Positions 51,439-63,052 of a DNA stretch of 64,000 bases are shown here, in pieces; position 1 is the stretch's first letter, and the number at the start of each line of letters is the position of its first letter. This stretch comes from an uncultured bacterium (GTDB lineage: Bacteria > JAGRBM01 > JAHCIT01): the NCBI GenBank assembly GCA_964621525.1, contig CAZUMS010000011.1, positions 587-64,586 on the forward strand. Direction: 5' to 3'. The notes beneath the pieces were generated by a model that did not search any database, had not been told where the DNA came from, and saw only the letters and a list, made by a program, of their open reading frames with translations. The position numbers and the translations under genes are program-made.

Positions 51439-52608
51439 TCAGGCCGAAGCTCCGGCCGTCTGCGCGCGGGGTTTCTCGCGGCGGTCCCTCAGCCGTTCCT
51501 CCACGGCGGACACCAGCTTCTGGTAATCCACCGCGGCGGGGCACCGGGGGTCGTATTCGAAAATCGTCTTCTTGTAGGACGGGGCTTCCTTCAGCTTCGA
51601 GTTCGCCCGGATGGGCTCGAACATCTGGTCCTTGAAGTAGTCCTTGAGGCTCGCCATCACGTCGTGGGTGATCCGCGCCCGCGGGTCGTAGAACGTCGGC
51701 AGCACGCCCAGGATCTCCAGCGGGTGGACGAGCTGCTCGCGCACGTAGCGCACCGTCTTTAAAATCTGCTTCACCCCGAACATGGCCAGGAAGTCGCACG
51801 ACACCGGGATCAGCACGTCGTTCGCGTAGGTGAGGGCGTTCTGGTTCACGATCGAGAGGCTCGGCGCGCAGTCCAGCACCACGTAGTCGTAGCCCGTGAG
51901 CGCCTCGAGCCGCTGCTTCAGGAGCCGCTCGCGCCGCTTCATGTTCACGAGCCGGATCTCCGCCGCCGCCACGGTCTCGTCGGAGGTGATGATGTCGAGG
52001 CCCGGCCGCACCGGCACGGCGACCTCCTGCGGCGCGGCCGAATCGATCAGGACGTGGTAGATCGACCGCTCCCCCCGCACGCCGAGCGAGGCGCCCACGT
52101 TCCCCTGCGAATCCATGTCGATGAGCAGCACGCGCTTCCCCGAGGCGGCGAGCCCCGCGGCGAGCGTCACGCTGGTCGTCGTCTTCCCGGTGCCCCCCTT
52201 CTGGTTCAGCACGGCGATCTTCTCGAGGTGGTGGTTCGCCGTCGCCGCCTTCACCAGCTTCGTGCGGCACTCGGGGCTGCACACGCGGCGGGTCTGGTTG
52301 CCGGCCACGAAGATCTGGCCGAGGTAGGCGACCTTGAACGGTTTTCCGCACTGGTCGCACTGGACCGGGGCGTCGGCCCCGCTGGAGACCACGCGGCCCG
52401 TCTCGACATCGACGAGCTTGGGCCCCGTGGACGATTCCTCGAGGAGGCAGTTCGAGCTGCAGTAGTAGCGGTCCCCGCCGGCCGTCTGGCGGCGCTGGAA
52501 GCTGAAAGTGAGCTCGAAATTCCGGCCGCAGACGCAGCAGGTCTTCTGTTCGGAGCGGGCTTCCTGGGGATTCAAAACGGGCCGCCTGACGTCGCCAGAG
52601 GCCCTCAC
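51439..52608 (-). CDS. ParA/Soj-family ATPase with two N-terminal Cys4 (TRASH/MYM-like) motifs
   Basis: NQKGGTGKTTT, IDMDSQGN, DCAPS, IPVSC; CxxC...YCSxxC and CxxC...VCSxxC. Confidence 0.9.
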   Translation of the reverse strand: MRASGDVRRPVLNPQEARSEQKTCCVCGRNFELTFSFQRRQTAGGDRYYCSSNCLLEESSTGPKLVDVETGRVVSSGADAPVQCDQCGKPFKVAYLGQIFVAGNQTRRVCSPECRTKLVKAATANHHLEKIAVLNQKGGTGKTTTSVTLAAGLAASGKRVLLIDMDSQGNVGASLGVRGERSIYHVLIDSAAPQEVAVPVRPGLDIITSDETVAAAEIRLVNMKRRERLLKQRLEALTGYDYVVLDCAPSLSIVNQNALTYANDVLIPVSCDFLAMFGVKQILKTVRYVREQLVHPLEILGVLPTFYDPRARITHDVMASLKDYFKDQMFEPIRANSKLKEAPSYKKTIFEYDPRCPAAVDYQKLVSAVEERLRDRREKPRAQTAGASA

Positions 52609-52741
52609 CTTGCTGAAACGTCACTAATATAAGGGGGTTATGGAACTCCTGTCAACCGGAGAATTTTACAAACGTGCCGGGCGGCCCTCCGGAAGGGTGC
52701 CGGACCGGCGCGCGGGGAGGCCCCCCCCCCCTCTGTTTTTT

Positions 52742-52881
52742 CCCGAACTCATCCCGGCGCTCCCCGCGCCACCCTTCTCTGCCAGCGCAGAGAAGGGACC
52801 GTTTCAGTTAACGGGGTTAGCTGGATTCCGGCCCTCTTTACGTCAGTAGAGAGGGCAGCCCCGGAGGGGCGGGTGAGTCCG
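52742..52881. ncRNA. Candidate structured RNA element, copy 1
   Basis: Multi-hairpin fold; 24 nt identical to copy 2; compensatory changes between copies. Confidence 0.45.
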
Positions 52882-52902
52882 TTCTGCGCCCGCCAGTGAG
52901 GT

Positions 52903-52927
52903 GTGCCGTTCCGTGCCGTTCCGTGCC
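52903..52927. repeat. Short tandem repeat (GTGCCGTTCC)x2.5
   Basis: GTGCCGTTCCGTGCCGTTCCGTGCC read directly from the sequence. Confidence 0.8.
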
Positions 52928-52984
52928 CAAGTGTGTTTATCCGTGCTGACCTGTGCAGGGTACCCCTCCCCCCCCCTGTTTTTT

Positions 52985-53112
52985 CCGGACCCATCCGGCC
53001 TCGCGGCCACCTTCCCTGCACGCAAGGAAGGCGCATCCCCAAGGCATGATGGCTGACGGGATGGCCCTCTTTGCTTGCAGAGAGGGTGCCCCGGAGGGGC
53101 GGGTGAGTCCGG
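52985..53112. ncRNA. Candidate structured RNA element, copy 2
   Basis: Same stem order as copy 1; also preceded by a C-run plus CTGTTTTTT. Confidence 0.45.
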
Positions 53113-53396
53113 TCCCGCTATCAAAACCCCAGGGGTTTCAGCCGGTTAACCCCGATAACGAGGAATAGGGAGGAAAATCCCCGCGCCGCCTGCCGTTAAG
53201 GTTTCCAGGTCCGGGCCGGGCACGGGGCAAACGGGCTCCCGGCGGAGCCCCAGCCACCGGGATTAGTATAGGTTATATGACGAGAAAGGCAAGGGGGAAT
53301 CGGCAAAGCGCAAAAGGGCATTGCCTCTAAGTTGAGTCATTAGGCCTGATTTTAGATTTTATTTTGGGAATCAATCCGCTAGCATCTTTAGGGCAT

Positions 53397-54956
53397 ATGG
53401 CAATTGCAAAACCAAAACCGGCGAACCGGCGGGTAATACCTGCAATCAAGGTTCATCAGTGGCTACCTGAATGGGACCGAATAAAATTTGATGCTGAAGG
53501 TTGGCAGCGCAAACCAGAAAAGCGTCATTTCTACATTTTCTCAATTAAGGCCGCTGAATTGAAAGCACTCACAGGTATCCAGCGTAGATCAGCAAACGCA
53601 GATCAACCACGAAAACGAGAATTAGGAATTCAGAGGCGACACGAAGAAGAAAGATCTCTGGCGATCAGAGATTTTGTTCGTTACGGCTATCCTGCATGTG
53701 ATCTCAATGTAGCACAGCGAAAAGAAGAGAAATATCGTCCACTTCTTCGGCCGGGGTGGCTGCCATCGGCAATAATTGTCAATATTCGACCAGAGAACGA
53801 CGAATTCGGACATATTTTTCAGGAAGATTTAGTTACGGTGATAGATCTACCAGATGGTGCCGCTTCTATCCAATTACCTTATGGTTTTAAAGATTCGCGA
53901 TGGAGGCCAGAATCAAGTGACCAATTTCCAATTCAGGTAATCGATGGACAACACAGGCTATGGGCTTTTAATGACGTAGGAATCGACGAAAAGGGACAAT
54001 TTGAAGTGCCAGTTGTGGCATTCGATAATCTGGATATTGGTTTCCAAGCGTACCTTTTCTGGTCAATTAATATTCGTCCTAAGAGGATTAAACCATCCTT
54101 AGCCTTCGATCTTTATCCATTGCTGCGATCCCAGGACTGGCTTGATGGTTTTTCTGGACATTCGATATACCGTCAGACTCGAGCGCAAGAAATTGTCGAA
54201 AATCTATGGATGTACCCAGAAAGTCCTTGGTATAAATCAATCGATATGCTCGGTGAAAAAACGGGGTATGTTACACAATCGGCATGGATTAATTCGTTAA
54301 CCTCATCATATATTAAAAGATGGAATGATAAAGTTGATGAAGACGAAACTAGGATTGGTGGACTCTTCGGTGCGCCAAATAAAAAAGACGCATTACTAAT
54401 AGGATGGAATAGAGCACAACAAGTAGCATTTCTTATTTACTTAGGAAATGAACTCAAATTTCGTGTAGCCAAAAATAGTGACTGGGCAGACAAAATAAGA
54501 GATTCGTCGGAAAAGAAAAAACCGGACCCGGCTTTCTACAGTCAAGACTCATTGCTGAATTCTGATCAAGGTGTTCGAGGTCTCTTGGCCGTCACCAACG
54601 ACATATTCTGCGCTCTCTCAAGAAAGTATAAATTAAAGGAATGGCAGAGTGCGAGTGATGATATTTCTGATATAACAGATGAAGCAATTAAGATTGAATT
54701 AGCCAGTATTGAAGATCAGGATTTCAAAAAGATAATTAAAAATATGGCGAATATACTATCGCAATTTGACTGGCGCACTTATTCTGCGGTCCCTGATGAT
54801 GACAAAGCCAAAGAGCGAAAGGCCGCATATCGTGGTGGTTCAGGATATAAAGAACTCAAAAGGCACTTATTAGAGCATTTATCTGGTGAGTCGTCTGATA
54901 TTGGGGAAATCGCCAGGGCACTACTTAGAAATCCAAGAAAAATCTCGCATGAGTAA
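53397..54956 (+). CDS. DGQHR-domain protein (DndB/ParB-Srx-like family)
   Basis: LGIQRRHEEER, PSAIIVN, QVIDGQHRLWAF, LFWSIN..PKRIKPSL; AT-rich codons. Confidence 0.88.
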   Translation: MAIAKPKPANRRVIPAIKVHQWLPEWDRIKFDAEGWQRKPEKRHFYIFSIKAAELKALTGIQRRSANADQPRKRELGIQRRHEEERSLAIRDFVRYGYPACDLNVAQRKEEKYRPLLRPGWLPSAIIVNIRPENDEFGHIFQEDLVTVIDLPDGAASIQLPYGFKDSRWRPESSDQFPIQVIDGQHRLWAFNDVGIDEKGQFEVPVVAFDNLDIGFQAYLFWSINIRPKRIKPSLAFDLYPLLRSQDWLDGFSGHSIYRQTRAQEIVENLWMYPESPWYKSIDMLGEKTGYVTQSAWINSLTSSYIKRWNDKVDEDETRIGGLFGAPNKKDALLIGWNRAQQVAFLIYLGNELKFRVAKNSDWADKIRDSSEKKKPDPAFYSQDSLLNSDQGVRGLLAVTNDIFCALSRKYKLKEWQSASDDISDITDEAIKIELASIEDQDFKKIIKNMANILSQFDWRTYSAVPDDDKAKERKAAYRGGSGYKELKRHLLEHLSGESSDIGEIARALLRNPRKISHE

Positions 54957-56250
54957 GAAGTTTTCCAAGGGTTCGCCGGACTTTGCAGCGGCAGTTAAAG
55001 CAGCCTCCAACGCTCGAATCGGTATCGCCCTTTCTGGACATATTGGCCCTCGATTACGAAAGGAGCAGAGATGGCTGGAGAAACTGAATATCTATTCTAC
55101 AGATCCGATCAAAGCTATAAAGTCTCATTCGATAAATCATCAACAACTTACTGAGTACGTTGCTGTAGCAGGAATATTACATACGTTTGACGGTTGGTCA
55201 TATCTGGGCCGGGCGTTGAATGCGCTAATGCTTTCGGACTTTTCTAGATCAATACATTTTTCGTATTATGCCGAACTTCGTGCAGCGCTTTCCATCTTGG
55301 CTCTCGAAGGAATTGGAGTTTTTAACGGCAGGAATATTTATATCGATGTGAAAGGGAGATGCCGCCTACATTCCTCACTCCCGACACATAAAGCTGTATG
55401 GAGTTATCTAGATAGTTGGGGGCGTTCGCCTAAGAGCGAAATCACCACGAAGCTTTTCAGATATCAGGGTGTCACATTCGAAGATTGGATAATCGCCTCA
55501 AAATTATCCACTGGGTCAATTGCACCACATGCATGGCTTTCATGCTGGGGTACAGATATTAAAAATTTTGCCAATGATCACTTAACCCGGAACAATGCGA
55601 GTTATCAACCGTCTCCATTGTCAGGAGACTATAAAGTTCCACTGCCTAAGATTTATGATCTAGTATGTAAGATATGGGAGTCTTTCGTCCCGACTATCGG
55701 TGGCTATGACGAAAATAGTAATGTCGATCATCTGATTGATATGTATGAATTGTATGAAAAAAATGCGGCAGTAACGAATATTGTTAACGGTCATATCGTT
55801 CCAGGGATGCAAGTGTTAGGTATTAATACGGGGATACAAAGACTTATTATAGATCGATACAAAAATAATAAGCGTGGGACACTTGGACTTATCCTTGATT
55901 CTGGAAATCCAAATAACAATGAACCGATTCCAGTTCAGATGATATCTAGAGCGACAATGCTACTTAAACTTGCAACATTGATGGCTAGACGCAGTATCGG
56001 CTCTTCTATAGATTTCCACAATGATGCGAAATTCTGGTGGATGACAGAGTGTGCCTATCGAGGGTTATGGAATGAAAAATCTCCACCGGCAGATATAAAA
56101 TTGTGTTGGGATGATATGAAACAGGTATTGGCGGACTTAGTCGCCGGGCAACAAAAGTCGTTAGATCGATATGATATTTCGAAAAATATAAGAGGAACTG
56201 AGAAGGTTGAGGCTTGTGAACTAATAGGGCTATACGGAATGGCAGCATGA
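54949..56250 (+). CDS. Large hypothetical protein with HEPN-like signature
   Basis: SYYAELRAALSILALEG...THKAVW...RNNASY parallels the HEPN pattern YxA..AL..G..H..V...R..xY; overlaps both neighbours. Confidence 0.75.
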   Translation: MSKKFSKGSPDFAAAVKAASNARIGIALSGHIGPRLRKEQRWLEKLNIYSTDPIKAIKSHSINHQQLTEYVAVAGILHTFDGWSYLGRALNALMLSDFSRSIHFSYYAELRAALSILALEGIGVFNGRNIYIDVKGRCRLHSSLPTHKAVWSYLDSWGRSPKSEITTKLFRYQGVTFEDWIIASKLSTGSIAPHAWLSCWGTDIKNFANDHLTRNNASYQPSPLSGDYKVPLPKIYDLVCKIWESFVPTIGGYDENSNVDHLIDMYELYEKNAAVTNIVNGHIVPGMQVLGINTGIQRLIIDRYKNNKRGTLGLILDSGNPNNNEPIPVQMISRATMLLKLATLMARRSIGSSIDFHNDAKFWWMTECAYRGLWNEKSPPADIKLCWDDMKQVLADLVAGQQKSLDRYDISKNIRGTEKVEACELIGLYGMAA

Positions 56251-57380
56251 AATACATGGGCTCCAAACGGGCGATGCTCCAGAACGGACTTGGCGAGGAG
56301 CTCGCCAGACGGGTGCCCGAGGCTGTCAGGTTCGTTGACCTGTTCACGGGTTCCGGTGCAGTGGCGTGGCATGTGGCGACACACTGGGGGATCCCTGTTC
56401 TTGCCGTCGATTTGCAGGCCTATGCAACGGCATTGGCGGGTGCTGTCGTTTGCCGGGACACGGTCGTCGATGGGGCACAACTCAAAAACGACTGGTTCGA
56501 CCGCGCGGAGGAGCTTCTCAGCGAAGCTTCCTGCTGGAATGACCTGACGGAGTTCCAGGACGATCTGGGCGAACGGATATCCAGACGCTTGGCTGACGAA
56601 GCCCGGCAGCTTTGTGAACTGCTCGGGCCAATCGGTCAGGCATACGGCGGTTATTATTACAGCCCGATGCAGGCTGCGGTCATCGAAGGGCTCAGGGCAA
56701 CGCTCCCCGAAACTCCGAATGAACGGCGGGTGGCTATTGCCGCCCTGATTCAGGCTGGCAGCCGGTGCGCGGCCTCTCCGGGCCATACGGCGCAGCCGTT
56801 CAAGCCGAACAGCACGGCGGGGAAATTCCTGCTGGAAGCGTGGCGTCGAGACGTCTGGGACGAGACTGAAAAGGCATTAAAGGCGATATCATCGCTCGCT
56901 GCGAAGGTTTCGGGAGACACGCATCAGGGCGATGCCGTGGCCCTGGTTCCCGACCTCATCCGGGAAGGGGATCTCGTTTTCCTCGATCCGCCCTATTCCG
57001 GCGTTCATTACAGCCGCTTCTATCATGTGCTGGAGACAATCGCGCGTGGTGAGATCGGCGAAGTTTCCGGCACAGGGCGCTATCCGGCACCGGAGGAACG
57101 GCCGCGTTCCGCCTTCAGCGTCATGACCGAATCGCGCGATGCCCTCGATACGCTCCTTCAGTCGATCAGCGCGGCAGGCGGAAGGGTTATTATGACTTTT
57201 CCCGCAGGCAAGGCTTCCAACGGATTGTCCGGCGTCAAAGTTAAAAATACTGCCGAAAAGTATTTCAAAATTCTCTCCCAGAAGATTTCCTCCAGGTTCA
57301 GCACCTTGGGCGGCAACCGTGAGAATCGAGATGCCCGGATTGACCGGGGAGAACTTATCCTGACGCTGCTTCCCAAATAG
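56247..57380 (+). CDS. N6-adenine DNA methyltransferase (D12/FokI-NlaIII-like class)
   Basis: KYMGSK, DLFTGSGAV (motif I), FLDPPY (motif IV), YSRFYHVLETI. Confidence 0.9.
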   Translation: MKYMGSKRAMLQNGLGEELARRVPEAVRFVDLFTGSGAVAWHVATHWGIPVLAVDLQAYATALAGAVVCRDTVVDGAQLKNDWFDRAEELLSEASCWNDLTEFQDDLGERISRRLADEARQLCELLGPIGQAYGGYYYSPMQAAVIEGLRATLPETPNERRVAIAALIQAGSRCAASPGHTAQPFKPNSTAGKFLLEAWRRDVWDETEKALKAISSLAAKVSGDTHQGDAVALVPDLIREGDLVFLDPPYSGVHYSRFYHVLETIARGEIGEVSGTGRYPAPEERPRSAFSVMTESRDALDTLLQSISAAGGRVIMTFPAGKASNGLSGVKVKNTAEKYFKILSQKISSRFSTLGGNRENRDARIDRGELILTLLPK

Positions 57381-57533: not shown

Positions 57534-57911
57534 ATGGAAGCAGAGAAACAGCAGGGCCCCGGTGTTCCGCTGCCGCCGGACGCGATCGAGCGCCGGCTGG
57601 GGAGCCCCGGCGTGCTGGCCGGTATCCGGCGGCGGCTGGAGGCGGCGTTCGGCGCGCGCCTGAAGGACGTGATCCTCTACGGCTCCACGGTCCGGGGCGA
57701 CGACGAGCCGGACAGCGACATCGACCTGCTGGTGCTGGTTTCGGAACCCTACGACTGGGGCCGGGACTGGGACCTGGCCTACGATGCCCTTTACGACATT
57801 TACCTCATCGGCGGCCGCCCGCTGTCGATCAAGGTCAAGACGCTGGCGCAGTACGAGACCTCGCCGATGCCGTTCTACCGGAACGTCCACCGCGAGGGGC
57901 TTCACCTTTGA
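57534..57911 (+). CDS. Minimal nucleotidyltransferase (MNT, antitoxin-type)
   Basis: ILYGSTVRGDDEPDSDIDLLV (GS-x10-DxD). Confidence 0.9.
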   Translation: MEAEKQQGPGVPLPPDAIERRLGSPGVLAGIRRRLEAAFGARLKDVILYGSTVRGDDEPDSDIDLLVLVSEPYDWGRDWDLAYDALYDIYLIGGRPLSIKVKTLAQYETSPMPFYRNVHREGLHL

Positions 57912-58321
57912 CCGAGGCGGCGGGAATTCTCTGGAACAAGTCGGTCCGCAAGCTGCGGGCGGCGGAAACCCTTTTTGCGGAAGGGGATTACGGATCGGCG
58001 TCGGGCCTCGCCTATTTCGCTGCGTTCAATGCGGTGTCGGCGCTGTTCCTGCTGGATGGGCTTGAGTTCCGCAAGCATTCCCAGGTCCAGTCGGCCGTGT
58101 TCGTCGAACTGGCGAGAAAGGGCCGCTGGCCCGAAGAACTGGCACGGGGATTCCGCAAGCTCGGCGAACTCCGCGCGGAAGACGATTACGAAACCGCCCC
58201 GGAATGCACGGAGTCCACCGGCAAGGAGGCGCTCCGCATGGCGGAGGCGATCCTCCGGCAGGTGAGCCGGGAGCGTCCGGGCCTGTTCGTTCTCTGGGAC
58301 GAGGACGACGTGAGCCGATGA
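57908..58321 (+). CDS. HEPN-domain protein (MNT partner)
   Basis: LAYFAAFNAVSAL, KHSQV, LRAEDDY; TTG start overlaps the MNT stop. Confidence 0.88.
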   Translation: MTEAAGILWNKSVRKLRAAETLFAEGDYGSASGLAYFAAFNAVSALFLLDGLEFRKHSQVQSAVFVELARKGRWPEELARGFRKLGELRAEDDYETAPECTESTGKEALRMAEAILRQVSRERPGLFVLWDEDDVSR

Positions 58322-61315: not shown

Positions 61316-63052
61316 ATGAGCCGGGCCGGCGAGGCGGGTTCGGGCGGCCGCCGTCCCGAAGGGGACGCCGCTTCGGGTGCGGGCCTGCTGCCGTTCGTCC
61401 GGCGGCTCGCGGCGACGCTCGACCTTGAGCCCGGCAGCGAAAATCTCAAGCGGCTCCTTGCCGAGGGGATCGCCCTCGGGGCGGCGAAGGTGTTCCGGGC
61501 GAAGACCACCTGGCCGGAGCCTCTCGCCCGCGCCGACCGGTTCACGCTCGCCCGGCTCGAACGGGAGTTCGCCGCGCAGATCGAACCGGCAGGCGATCCG
61601 CTCGACCGGCTGCTCCGGGCGGGCCGTCTCTACGAAACCGTCGTCCAGTCCGGCTCGAAGACCGCCCGCCGCGCATCCGGCAGTTTCTTCACGCCCCCCG
61701 GCATCGCCCGCTACGCCGCCGGGGCGGCGTCGGCGGGCCTCGAAACCCGCGATTTCCACGACCCCGCCTGCGGCGCGGGGAGCCTGCTCGCCGCCTTAAG
61801 GCTCGCGGGCGGCGTTCCGCTGGAGTGGCTGCACGGCACCGATCTGGACCCCGTGGCCGTGCACCTCGCGCGGGTGCTGCTCTGGCTCGCCGATGGTGCT
61901 TCGCCGGAGTCCGTGGAAACCGTCCGTGCGAATCTCCGCTGCGCGGACGGCCTCGCGGGCACGCTCCCCGAAGGTGCTGTCGTCATCGCCAACCCGCCGT
62001 TCGTGAAGGGCGTCGTGAAGACCGGCGCCGCCGGGAAGGCCGCCCGGAACGGGCTCCGGCGGCGGCTCCCGCTCCTTCAGGGGGCGTTCGACCTCGCGGC
62101 CGCGTTCTGGGCGCTTGCCGATCACGACCAGTGCCGCCGCACCGTGCTGGTGCTCCCGAACCGGCTGCTCGCCGCGGGCTACACGGCAAGGCTCCGCGAG
62201 GCGGCGCTGCTCCGGGGCGACTCGGTCACGATCCGGGATTTCAGCCGCCAGCGGGCGTTCGGCTCCGTCGGCGTGTATCCCGTCGTCCTCACCCTGGACC
62301 GTGACGGCCGGGGCGAGGGGCTCACGGGCGACGGGCGGAGCACCTTCCGGTGGAAGCCGAGGCTCCTCCGGGGACGGAGCTGGAGCGCGGCGCTGTCCGC
62401 CGAGGCGATGAAGCTGCTGGAACGGGACCCGCTCCGGCTCGGCGAGGTCGCCACCGTCACGGCGGGGCAGACCACCGCCGAGGCGTACGAAACCAAGGAA
62501 GCACTCGGCACACGGGGCGAATTCCTGTTCGTCACGGCGGGGGCCATCGAACCCCACCGGATCCTGCGCGACGCCCCGCAACGGTTCCTCGGGAAGGACT
62601 GGAAAAACCCCCGCCTCGCCGCGAAGGCCATGGGCGCCCGCCGGGCGAGAATTGCCCGCACCCCGAAGCTGCTCGTCGCCGCCATGGGCCGTCGGATCGA
62701 GGCGGCGCTGGATCTCAAAGGGGAGATCGCTCCGGCGGTGAGCGTCTTCACCGTGATCCCAAAGGAGGGCGGGCCGCTTGGCCCCGGAGCCCTGTCGGCG
62801 CTTCTCAATTCGCGTCCCCTCGCCGGACTGTTCACGGCGCTCCACGGCGCGCAGGCCATGTCGGGCGGCTACATCTCGGTCACGCGGCCGATGCTGGAGG
62901 ACCTTCCGCTCGCCGTGCACTCCGACCCGGCGCGGATCCGGCGCCTTGAAGCCCTCGGTCTCGCCCTCTCCGAACTGCCCGAAACCCCCGAACTTCTTGA
63001 GGAAGCCGACGAACTCGCCGCCGGTCTGCTGGCGGAAGGAAAAACGGGTTAA
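61316..63052 (+). CDS. Orphan N6-adenine DNA methyltransferase (Eco57I/TaqI-like)
   Basis: FFTP, DPACGAGSLL, IANPPF, C-terminal TaqI-C-like region (ALLNSR..F..GGY). Confidence 0.8.
   Translation: MSRAGEAGSGGRRPEGDAASGAGLLPFVRRLAATLDLEPGSENLKRLLAEGIALGAAKVFRAKTTWPEPLARADRFTLARLEREFAAQIEPAGDPLDRLLRAGRLYETVVQSGSKTARRASGSFFTPPGIARYAAGAASAGLETRDFHDPACGAGSLLAALRLAGGVPLEWLHGTDLDPVAVHLARVLLWLADGASPESVETVRANLRCADGLAGTLPEGAVVIANPPFVKGVVKTGAAGKAARNGLRRRLPLLQGAFDLAAAFWALADHDQCRRTVLVLPNRLLAAGYTARLREAALLRGDSVTIRDFSRQRAFGSVGVYPVVLTLDRDGRGEGLTGDGRSTFRWKPRLLRGRSWSAALSAEAMKLLERDPLRLGEVATVTAGQTTAEAYETKEALGTRGEFLFVTAGAIEPHRILRDAPQRFLGKDWKNPRLAAKAMGARRARIARTPKLLVAAMGRRIEAALDLKGEIAPAVSVFTVIPKEGGPLGPGALSALLNSRPLAGLFTALHGAQAMSGGYISVTRPMLEDLPLAVHSDPARIRRLEALGLALSELPETPELLEEADELAAGLLAEGKTG

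Follow-up and report, generated by a model that had tools for sequence, protein, structure and literature searches.

The locus described here is a cluster of three co-oriented genes in a stretch of 64,000 nucleotides (nt) of DNA from an uncultured bacterium (GTDB lineage Bacteria; JAGRBM01; JAHCIT01), referred to throughout as the window (GenBank assembly GCA_964621525.1, contig CAZUMS010000011.1, positions 587 to 64,586 of the forward strand). Positions are counted within the window unless a locus is named. A sequence-only reading had proposed that the genes, designated g1, g2 and g3, form an unnamed defence operon made of a DGQHR protein, a HEPN-like protein and an N6-adenine methyltransferase. 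The proposal was followed up with profile searches, structure models and surveys of related loci.

Organisation and composition of the locus

The three genes and their diagnostic segments are located as follows.

53397-54956, + strand: g1, 519 amino acids (aa) from ATG; the open reading frame (ORF) list also gives a start at 53364
53940-53960, + strand: IDGQHRL, the phosphate-binding box of the ParB fold, g1 residues 182-188
54949-56250, + strand: g2, 433 aa from ATG; the ORF list also gives a start at 54886
55180-55287, + strand: g2 helices 1-2, with invariant H78, D81-G-W83, H103 and Y106-Y-A-E109-L-R111 (from alignments; helices 64-94 and 98-119 in the models); HFSYYAELRAA is at residues 103-113
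55384-55401, + strand: THKAVW, g2 residues 146-151 (T146-H147...W151), with the invariant histidine after the beta hairpin
55555-55611, + strand: g2 D203...D210...R214-N215-x-x-S218-Y219-x-P221, an R-x4-Y at a helix end (helix 202-218, then loop)
55588-55605, + strand: RNNASY, g2 residues 214-219
56247-57380, + strand: g3, 377 aa
56337-56357, + strand: DLFTGSG, g3 motif I for S-adenosylmethionine binding, residues 31-37
56985-56996, + strand: DPPY, g3 catalytic motif IV, residues 247-250
~53270-56250, + strand: low-GC block (~42% GC) of leader, g1 and g2, from the composition profile and per-gene GC

The motifs quoted in the sequence-only reading (IDGQHRL, THKAVW, RNNASY, DLFTGSG and DPPY) were all found where it had placed them. 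Each gene overlaps the next. The g1/g2 overlap is 8 nt long (ATGAGTAA, 54949-54956), with the g1 stop codon TAA at 54954-54956 inside it and g2 starting at 54949; the g2/g3 overlap is the 4-nt ATGA at 56247-56250, with the g2 stop TGA at 56248-56250 and the g3 ATG at 56247. Expression of the three genes is thus tied. This arrangement was borne out by the ORF list and by independent gene calls on two independent metagenome contigs with an identical g2 protein, which gave the same 519-, 433- and 377-aa products.

The first two genes had also been described as AT-rich for their host, and this was confirmed (42% GC against 66-70% in the flanks). Per gene, the GC content is 0.417 for g1, 0.419 for g2 and 0.593 for g3, with flanks at 0.66-0.70. 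The edge of the low-GC block is sharp and falls exactly at the g2 stop/g3 start, in the ATGA overlap, so that g3 lies outside the block. In the window g3 is 17 points above g1-g2, whereas in 40 other loci the methyltransferase is within ~0.03 of the pair.

The leader upstream of g1 (52712-53114) carries a tandem duplication of ~235 nt, with three repeat families spaced 230-243 nt apart; an exact 24-mer is repeated at 52858 and 53088 and occurs nowhere else in the window. Two independent metagenome contigs stop 317 nt upstream of g1, inside the repeat leader. The repeat region had no Rfam match, and at the cassette boundaries no tRNA, Rfam family or convincing promoter or terminator delimiting the cassette was found.

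Protein families of g1, g2 and g3

g1 passed the NCBIfam model of the DGQHR domain (TIGR03187, 66.3 bits; cutoff, 58.85), as the sequence-only reading had led one to expect, and D183, G184, Q185, H186 and R187 of the box are invariant across 32 g1 relatives. These data support the assignment of g1, on sequence grounds, to DGQHR/DndB-like proteins of the ParB/Srx fold. Models specific for DndB were not satisfied: Pfam DndB (PF14072) gave 24.7 bits, below its cutoff of 29.1, with only profile positions 10-159 of 338 matched, and was matched weakly by all 32 relatives; TIGR04172 gave 51 bits against a cutoff of 450, the scores for DGQHR_dnd_1/DpdB were also far below their cutoffs, and no DndB equivalog model of NCBIfam was matched. 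Relatives of g1 fill more than 2,557 clusters (E<=1e-10; ~47% identity) and are named only 'DGQHR domain-containing protein'. A g1 profile found nothing among PDB sequences, and hhalign detected no relation between the g1 C-terminus and g2, or between g1 and the small HEPN protein encoded downstream of g3 (see below). In two Bacteroidota loci (L039, 5707-7899; L055, 5659-7869) g1 has ~730 aa and is ~200 residues longer; the methyltransferase there lies upstream of g1 and not downstream of g2.

g3 scored 52.4 bits against Pfam PF02086 (cutoff, 22) and 72.6 bits against the generic PADLOC model MTase_II, and its motif I is N-terminal to DPPY. From these matches and motifs g3 is assigned to the alpha-class (D12) N6-adenine DNA methyltransferases, in line with the activity first proposed for it. 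It failed the Dam model (TIGR00571, 32.6 bits against a cutoff of 114.85) and forms a cluster of its own, apart from the canonical Dam partners described below.

g2 had no match in Pfam, NCBIfam, PADLOC, PHROGs or the PDB sequences (the last searched with phmmer and with a profile), and no phage record encodes it. A family of 34 members likewise gave no match at E<=10, and that search included the HEPN families of Pfam. Its relatives number 623 in 90% clusters. A g2 profile run against 1.84 billion representatives found 1,218 at E<=1e-3, 1,141 at <=1e-10 and 886 at <=1e-30; all 1,218 cluster representatives are ~420-470 aa long and none is a fusion. These counts, together with the uniform length and the lack of fusions, show that the family is sharply bounded. 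The window copy is an outlier in it, with <=32% identity to its relatives, which are 41-45% identical to their own nearest neighbours. Among 120 g2 sequences H78, D81, G82, W83, H103, Y106, Y107, E109, R111, H147, D203, R214, S218, Y219 and P221 are invariant.

AlphaFold2 models were obtained for full-length g2 (mean predicted local distance difference test score, pLDDT, 77.6; predicted template-modelling score, pTM, 0.84) and, on a deeper alignment, for residues 38-255 (pLDDT 85.9, pTM 0.81). Both are all-alpha with a single beta hairpin, and the helices run 64-94, 98-119 (with E109), an insert at 120-201 (with H147), 202-218 and 232-246. A PD-(D/E)xK fold, which the sequence-only reading had not assigned to g2 either, was excluded by these models. 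Searches of the PDB and BFVD with both models by Foldseek gave a best E of 0.2-0.3, template-modelling (TM) scores below 0.4 and no HEPN structure. A beta-beta-alpha-metal (HNH-like) reading of the hairpin and the H147 helix was considered and dropped: Foldseek gave it no support, and the window copy has Asn in place of the hairpin histidine of the family.

Conservation, exchangeable modification genes and mobility

Genomes were scanned at one per species, which yielded a g2 relative in 162 species (a lower bound); the best 80 loci were analysed. g1 lies directly upstream of g2 in 79 of these 80 loci, which were found through g2, and the exception is cut by a contig end. Conversely, g2 lies directly downstream of g1 in all 71 metagenome loci that were found through g1 and extend at least 600 nt downstream. 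The pairing is thus obligate in both directions, and the recurrence of the same gene order in 150 independent loci puts the arrangement beyond chance. The hosts, at least 162 species, belong to more than 15 phyla, among them Proteobacteria, Actinomycetota, Chloroflexota, Acidobacteriota, Planctomycetota, Cyanobacteria, Bacteroidota, Verrucomicrobiota, Armatimonadota, Nitrospinota, Elusimicrobia, Gemmatimonadota and Mycoplasmatota, and to one archaeal genus (Methanoregula). The cassette is widespread but rare.

A DNA-modification gene stands beside the pair in ~73 of the 80 genome loci, and its kind varies.

~40 of 80 loci: g3-type D12 methyltransferase (genes of this type directly downstream of g2 were counted in 41-43 loci)
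16 of 80 loci: canonical Dam
8 of 80 loci: beta-class N6_N4 methyltransferase
2 of 80 loci: MT-A70
2 of 80 loci: HsdM
3 of 80 loci: true DndC/DndD cluster with dnd_assoc_4
2 of 80 loci: Dnd hints only (Methanoregula)
2 of 80 loci: no information, contig ends
1 of 80 loci: degraded locus
2 of 80 loci: intact pair, modification gene not nearby

The claim that the three genes form a conserved unit was therefore retained for their order and revised for their membership. The conserved core is the g1-g2 pair, and the methyltransferase is an exchangeable partner drawn from at least five enzyme families or replaced by dnd genes. Pair subfamilies track the type of modification, with several switches: the nearest relative has the same modification type in 57 of 66 cases for g1 and in 55 of 65 for g2, where shuffling expects 20 +/- 4. 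In the loci of cyanobacterial type (L006, 5910-14679; also L019 and L038) the pair sits inside a true dnd cluster, with the order DndD-like ATPase, Uma2 nuclease, dnd_assoc_4 (TIGR04062), g1, g2, AAA ATPase, DndC and DndD in L006-type loci, and occupies the usual place of DndB.

Horizontal mobility of the cassette, among defence and mobile genes, is supported by several observations. Module GC averages 8-9 points below the flanks (69 loci), and the module is adjoined by BglII-family type II restriction-modification (R-M) systems in 4 loci, by integrases in 7 and by HsdM in 6; toxin-antitoxin genes are also found as neighbours. On a Zymomonas plasmid of 30,952 bp (pZZM405/CP4 type; NC_022903/NC_013788) genes for a DGQHR protein, a hypothetical protein and Dam lie between a PI-PLC gene and DarT/DarG-like genes, and the same replicon carries a type I R-M system and several toxin-antitoxin pairs. 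The trio segment of this CP4-type plasmid (L082, NC_013788.1, 3453-8664) is 5.2 kb long; in its place pZM32 of strain ZM4 (L165, NZ_CP023716.1, 9907-11451) has a PIN-domain gene and a helix-turn-helix (HTH) gene, on a backbone of 88-99% identity, and no g1, g2 or g3 relative was found in pZM32. Such a swap for a PIN + HTH pair in a shared backbone is how defence cargo behaves when it occupies a variable slot. The record named 'ZM4 pZZM405' is a CP4-type plasmid and does not come from the current ZM4 strain. The single-molecule real-time (SMRT) methylome of ZM4, which holds only CAGN4CTG, GAAGN7TCC and GANTC (PMC8432527), was considered as a sign of a silent Dam partner and rejected, since pZM32 lacks the trio.

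The BglII-family endonucleases beside the module are accompanied by beta-class N6_N4 methyltransferases and occur in different lineages (L001, 3897-6308; L046, 11727-13285; L054, 12291-13846; L072, 4690-6397).

In the window the trio shares an islet of 5.7 kb with an MNT-HEPN toxin-antitoxin pair, between a ParA-like ATPase gene and pyruvate kinase. The neighbouring features are given below.

57534-57911, + strand: MNT nucleotidyltransferase (PF01909), directly after g3
57908-58321, + strand: small HEPN protein (PF05168, UPF0332-type), overlapping MNT by 4 nt
61316-63052, + strand: second DNA methyltransferase, 578 aa, with N6_Mtase, weak Eco57I and TaqI_C-like domains and a weak mad2/MADS match
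51439-52608, - strand: ParA/MinD-type ATPase (AAA_31, CbiA), transcribed away from the trio, with the repeat-bearing intergenic region in between

The MNT-HEPN pair resembles type VII toxin-antitoxin systems and matches the PADLOC candidates PDC-S09 and PDC-M05; its HEPN protein has only three close relatives in the protein database. The second methyltransferase gene lies between a peroxiredoxin gene and the window end, with no endonuclease gene visible beside it. The ParA/MinD-type ATPase has a Cys-rich N-terminal extension of ~125 residues with several CxxC-like pairs. Around the trio in the window no dndCDE, ssp or known restriction-endonuclease domain was found, as the sequence-only reading had reported.

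Possible mechanism and relation to known systems

With moderate confidence, we read the trio as an R-M-like cassette for modification-based discrimination of self from non-self. g3 would methylate adenines in host DNA, and g1 and g2 together would form the restricting part. g1, predicted to be a nucleoside triphosphate (NTP)-dependent reader of DNA or of its modification, would bind DNA and read the presence of the mark through an NTP-driven switch, for which its DGQHR nucleotide-binding box is intact. g2, predicted to be an effector or partner subunit, would with its invariant His/Asp/Glu/Arg/Tyr constellation supply catalysis, probably as a nuclease. Unmarked incoming DNA would trigger the effector, and a protective mark on host DNA would release or silence the complex. 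A single reader/effector pair combined with many alternative writers is what would be expected of a restriction module and not of a housekeeping function. The reading is also supported, indirectly, by the joint decay of methyltransferase and pair. In Candidatus Foliamicus (L054, 1546-12034) an integrase-bearing insertion of ~4.7 kb splits g1; the gene for the g3-type methyltransferase is itself split there and has a frameshift, and of the three only g2 looks intact. L058 has both g2 and Dam in fragments, and every broken methyltransferase is accompanied by a broken g1 or g2. A comparable switch has been described for DndI, in which a DUF262 domain with DGQQR is joined to HNH: its ATPase is stimulated by the host phosphorothioate, which leads to release from self DNA, and unmodified DNA is nicked; R87A and N541A abolish defence, the DGQQR arginine being essential for ATPase and defence (PMC11662687).

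Zymomonas CP3 belongs to the CP4 group, in which the trio plasmid is found, and has an unassigned N6-methyladenine motif, RGATCY, at 98.6% of sites (PMC8088579). This motif would fit an active Dam-family partner, provided that CP3 carries the plasmid and has no other candidate enzyme. BstYI, of the BglII enzyme family, cuts RGATCY; its agreement with the CP3 motif may be coincidence or a hint of shared GATC-core targets.

Several observations weigh against the R-M-like reading. No nuclease or other catalytic fold was recognised in g2, and no nuclease or catalytic fold in the C-terminal 200 residues of g1. Two loci (L032 and L064) hold an apparently intact pair and no modification gene within ~6-8 kb. 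Among named proteins the closest relative of g1 is DndB, which regulates transcription and is not a restriction factor (PMC4507180). Finally, g1-g2 and g3 of the window have different compositional histories, through either a recent exchange of g1-g2 before a resident g3 or a very different amelioration of the genes. Should the pair have been swapped in before a resident methyltransferase, reader and writer need not match strictly in sequence, or else the pair may have no function in the window. In a recombination test g1, g2 and g3 of the window were roughly equidistant from all relatives, so that phylogeny cannot confirm the swap suggested by GC.

The precedent of DndB, a DGQHR protein that represses dndBCDE by promoter binding (PMC4507180), raises another explanation, in which g1, with g2 as cofactor, would control the adjacent modification enzyme by binding DNA, with no restriction. 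The position of g1 at the head of the operon behind an unusual repeat-containing leader, and the three cyanobacterial-type loci with g1-g2 where DndB would sit, are in keeping with it. We consider it improbable: two proteins that are strictly co-inherited, total ~950 residues and contain dozens of invariant polar positions go far beyond the needs of a repressor, six unrelated modification machineries are served by the same pair, and g1 fails the DndB-specific models (sub-cutoff in Pfam, no equivalog). In a further explanation, the mark might activate the pair instead of silencing it, as host phosphorothioate stimulates SspE, or the pair might attack a foreign mark in the manner of type IV systems, the methyltransferase having a separate function. 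DUF262/ParB-fold readers do include SspE and the type IV GmrSD/BrxU, two loci have the pair without a methyltransferase, and the GC mosaic of the window suggests that the pair can be combined with a pre-existing one. For a stand-alone type IV system, however, an adjacent and usually translationally coupled modification gene in ~90% of loci and a pair subtype that tracks modification type would be unexpected, and a modification-dependent mechanism of either kind is given little credence here; sequence data cannot separate the licensing from the protective variant.

The remaining explanation, which goes back to the sequence-only reading, is that g2 is a divergent HEPN RNase that would cause abortive infection once g1 senses unmodified DNA or a failure of methylation. 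HEPN domains are defined by a core of four helices, with Rx4-6H closing helix 3, a polar residue following the R and an acidic one in helix 2; inserts fall between helices 2 and 3, and in the AbiV/AF0298 type the motif histidine is missing and one from the insert is used instead (PMC3710099). The order of secondary structure in g2 fits this plan. In the models R214-N215...Y219 ends a helix and opens a loop, E109 is part of the long helix before it, and the two are separated by a large insert that carries the invariant H147, a layout that matches the published description, the histidine-less AbiV/AF0298 type included (PMC3710099). R214 and N215 fit the motif, the histidine position is taken by Y219, and an invariant histidine, H147, is present in the insert. 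Three signatures are collinear in g2 and the neighbouring UPF0332/HEPN-T protein, namely 'GD(P/Y)xxA...YYA...A..LL..EG', (T/K)H after helix 2 and R-x3-(S/D)-Y, and a HEPN family found in operons with ParB and methylase genes was listed by Anantharaman et al. (PMC3710099). Statistical support for the alignment of the two proteins on which the HEPN-like claim had rested was not obtained. Pairwise hhalign gave P values of 0.003-0.007 for the helix 1-2 region and a probability of 3-10%, covering only the first helical hairpin and failing to reach R-x4-Y even without the insert; this profile-profile test is weak because the small-HEPN profile was built from only 3 sequences. No HEPN family of Pfam was matched by the 34 g2 members at E<=10, and Foldseek with the full or domain model found no HEPN structure (best E 0.3, TM<0.4), a model-based result that neither supports nor cleanly excludes HEPN. 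The position of the canonical catalytic histidine is an invariant tyrosine, and the many invariant His/Asp residues resemble a metal site more than the metal-independent HEPN site. We put the HEPN-likeness of the fold at about an even chance and RNase chemistry lower; an abortive-RNase role is purely a matter of inference, and the explanation as a whole is unlikely.

A broader form of the R-M-like reading is offered tentatively. The g1-g2 pair could be a universal mark reader and effector that plugs into N6-methyladenine systems (four unrelated methyltransferase folds) and into Dnd phosphorothioate systems, g2 being either a nuclease whose fold has not been described before or an extremely derived HEPN protein with a tyrosine/metal active site.

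Experimentally established readers of modification with a ParB fold are DndI, SspE and GmrSD. In DndI and SspE the host mark controls the NTPase and the release of DNA, and unmodified DNA is attacked (PMC11662687). The trio resembles these two in having a ParB/Srx-fold domain with a DGQxR box, in the coupling of this domain to an effector and in its genetic link to a DNA-modification module. It differs in that g1 belongs to the DndB/DGQHR branch and not to Pfam DUF262, and in that its mark would mostly be N6-methyladenine, set by varied methyltransferases; unlike DndI, SspE and GmrSD, it has a separate effector, g2, and no HNH/DUF1524 domain in g1, g2 or neighbours. With DndB, g1 shares a hidden Markov model (HMM) family, TIGR03187, and some g1 relatives lie in dnd clusters. 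Unlike DndB (~360 aa), however, g1 has 519 aa, falls below the DndB cutoffs, always occurs with g2 and is mostly found beside methyltransferases; dnd genes are present in only 3-5 of the 80 related loci and are absent from the window. The similarity to DpdB, which assists the modification step and not restriction, is weak and confined to the DGQHR core (32 bits in NCBIfam, 28 bits in PADLOC), far under the equivalog cutoff of 300 bits, and dpdA/dpdC genes are absent.

Like a type II R-M system, the cassette combines a co-transcribed methyltransferase with genes expected to be toxic in its absence, is mobile and decays jointly. Unlike such a system, it has no recognised PD-(D/E)xK, HNH, GIY-YIG or PLD fold, and its restriction part would consist of two proteins of ~950 aa that include an NTP-binding ParB fold. 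ParB-HEPN-methylase operons were noted computationally in 2013 with the MAE_28990 family of HEPN proteins (PMC3710099), and HEPN fusions to DndB-like proteins were noted by Makarova et al. The trio shares with the MAE_28990-type operon a ParB-fold gene, a helical gene and a DNA methylase. In a comparison made by Pfam model and description, g2 and 33 relatives missed Pfam HEPN_MAE_28990 and all other HEPN models; Rx4-6H is retained in that family, but in g2 the place of its histidine is taken by an invariant tyrosine. The earlier claim that the trio is unnamed was upheld, in that no system of PADLOC-DB v2 matched (g2 had no match, g1 a weak one to DpdB and g3 one to the generic MTase_II) and no description or name of the g1-g2 pair was found in the literature searched; the general architecture of the trio is not new. 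Three things are new: the g2 family, for which Pfam, NCBIfam and PADLOC have no model; the obligate pairing of g2 with a distinct subfamily of long DGQHR proteins; and the breadth of writers.

If confirmed, the cassette would be a widespread but rare modification-based immune module with no recognisable nuclease in its restricting half. Proteins of the DndB type with a ParB fold, known until now as regulators, could then serve as the reader in restriction systems for methylated DNA, which would link the phosphorothioate systems (DndI, SspE) to classical R-M. The g2 family, with its ~1,200 diverse protein clusters, would be given a function and, probably, a catalytic fold new to science. With its interchangeable writers the cassette is a natural experiment on the adaptation of one reader to different marks, and in strains such as Zymomonas mobilis CP4 it may act as a barrier to DNA transfer that has so far gone unrecognised.

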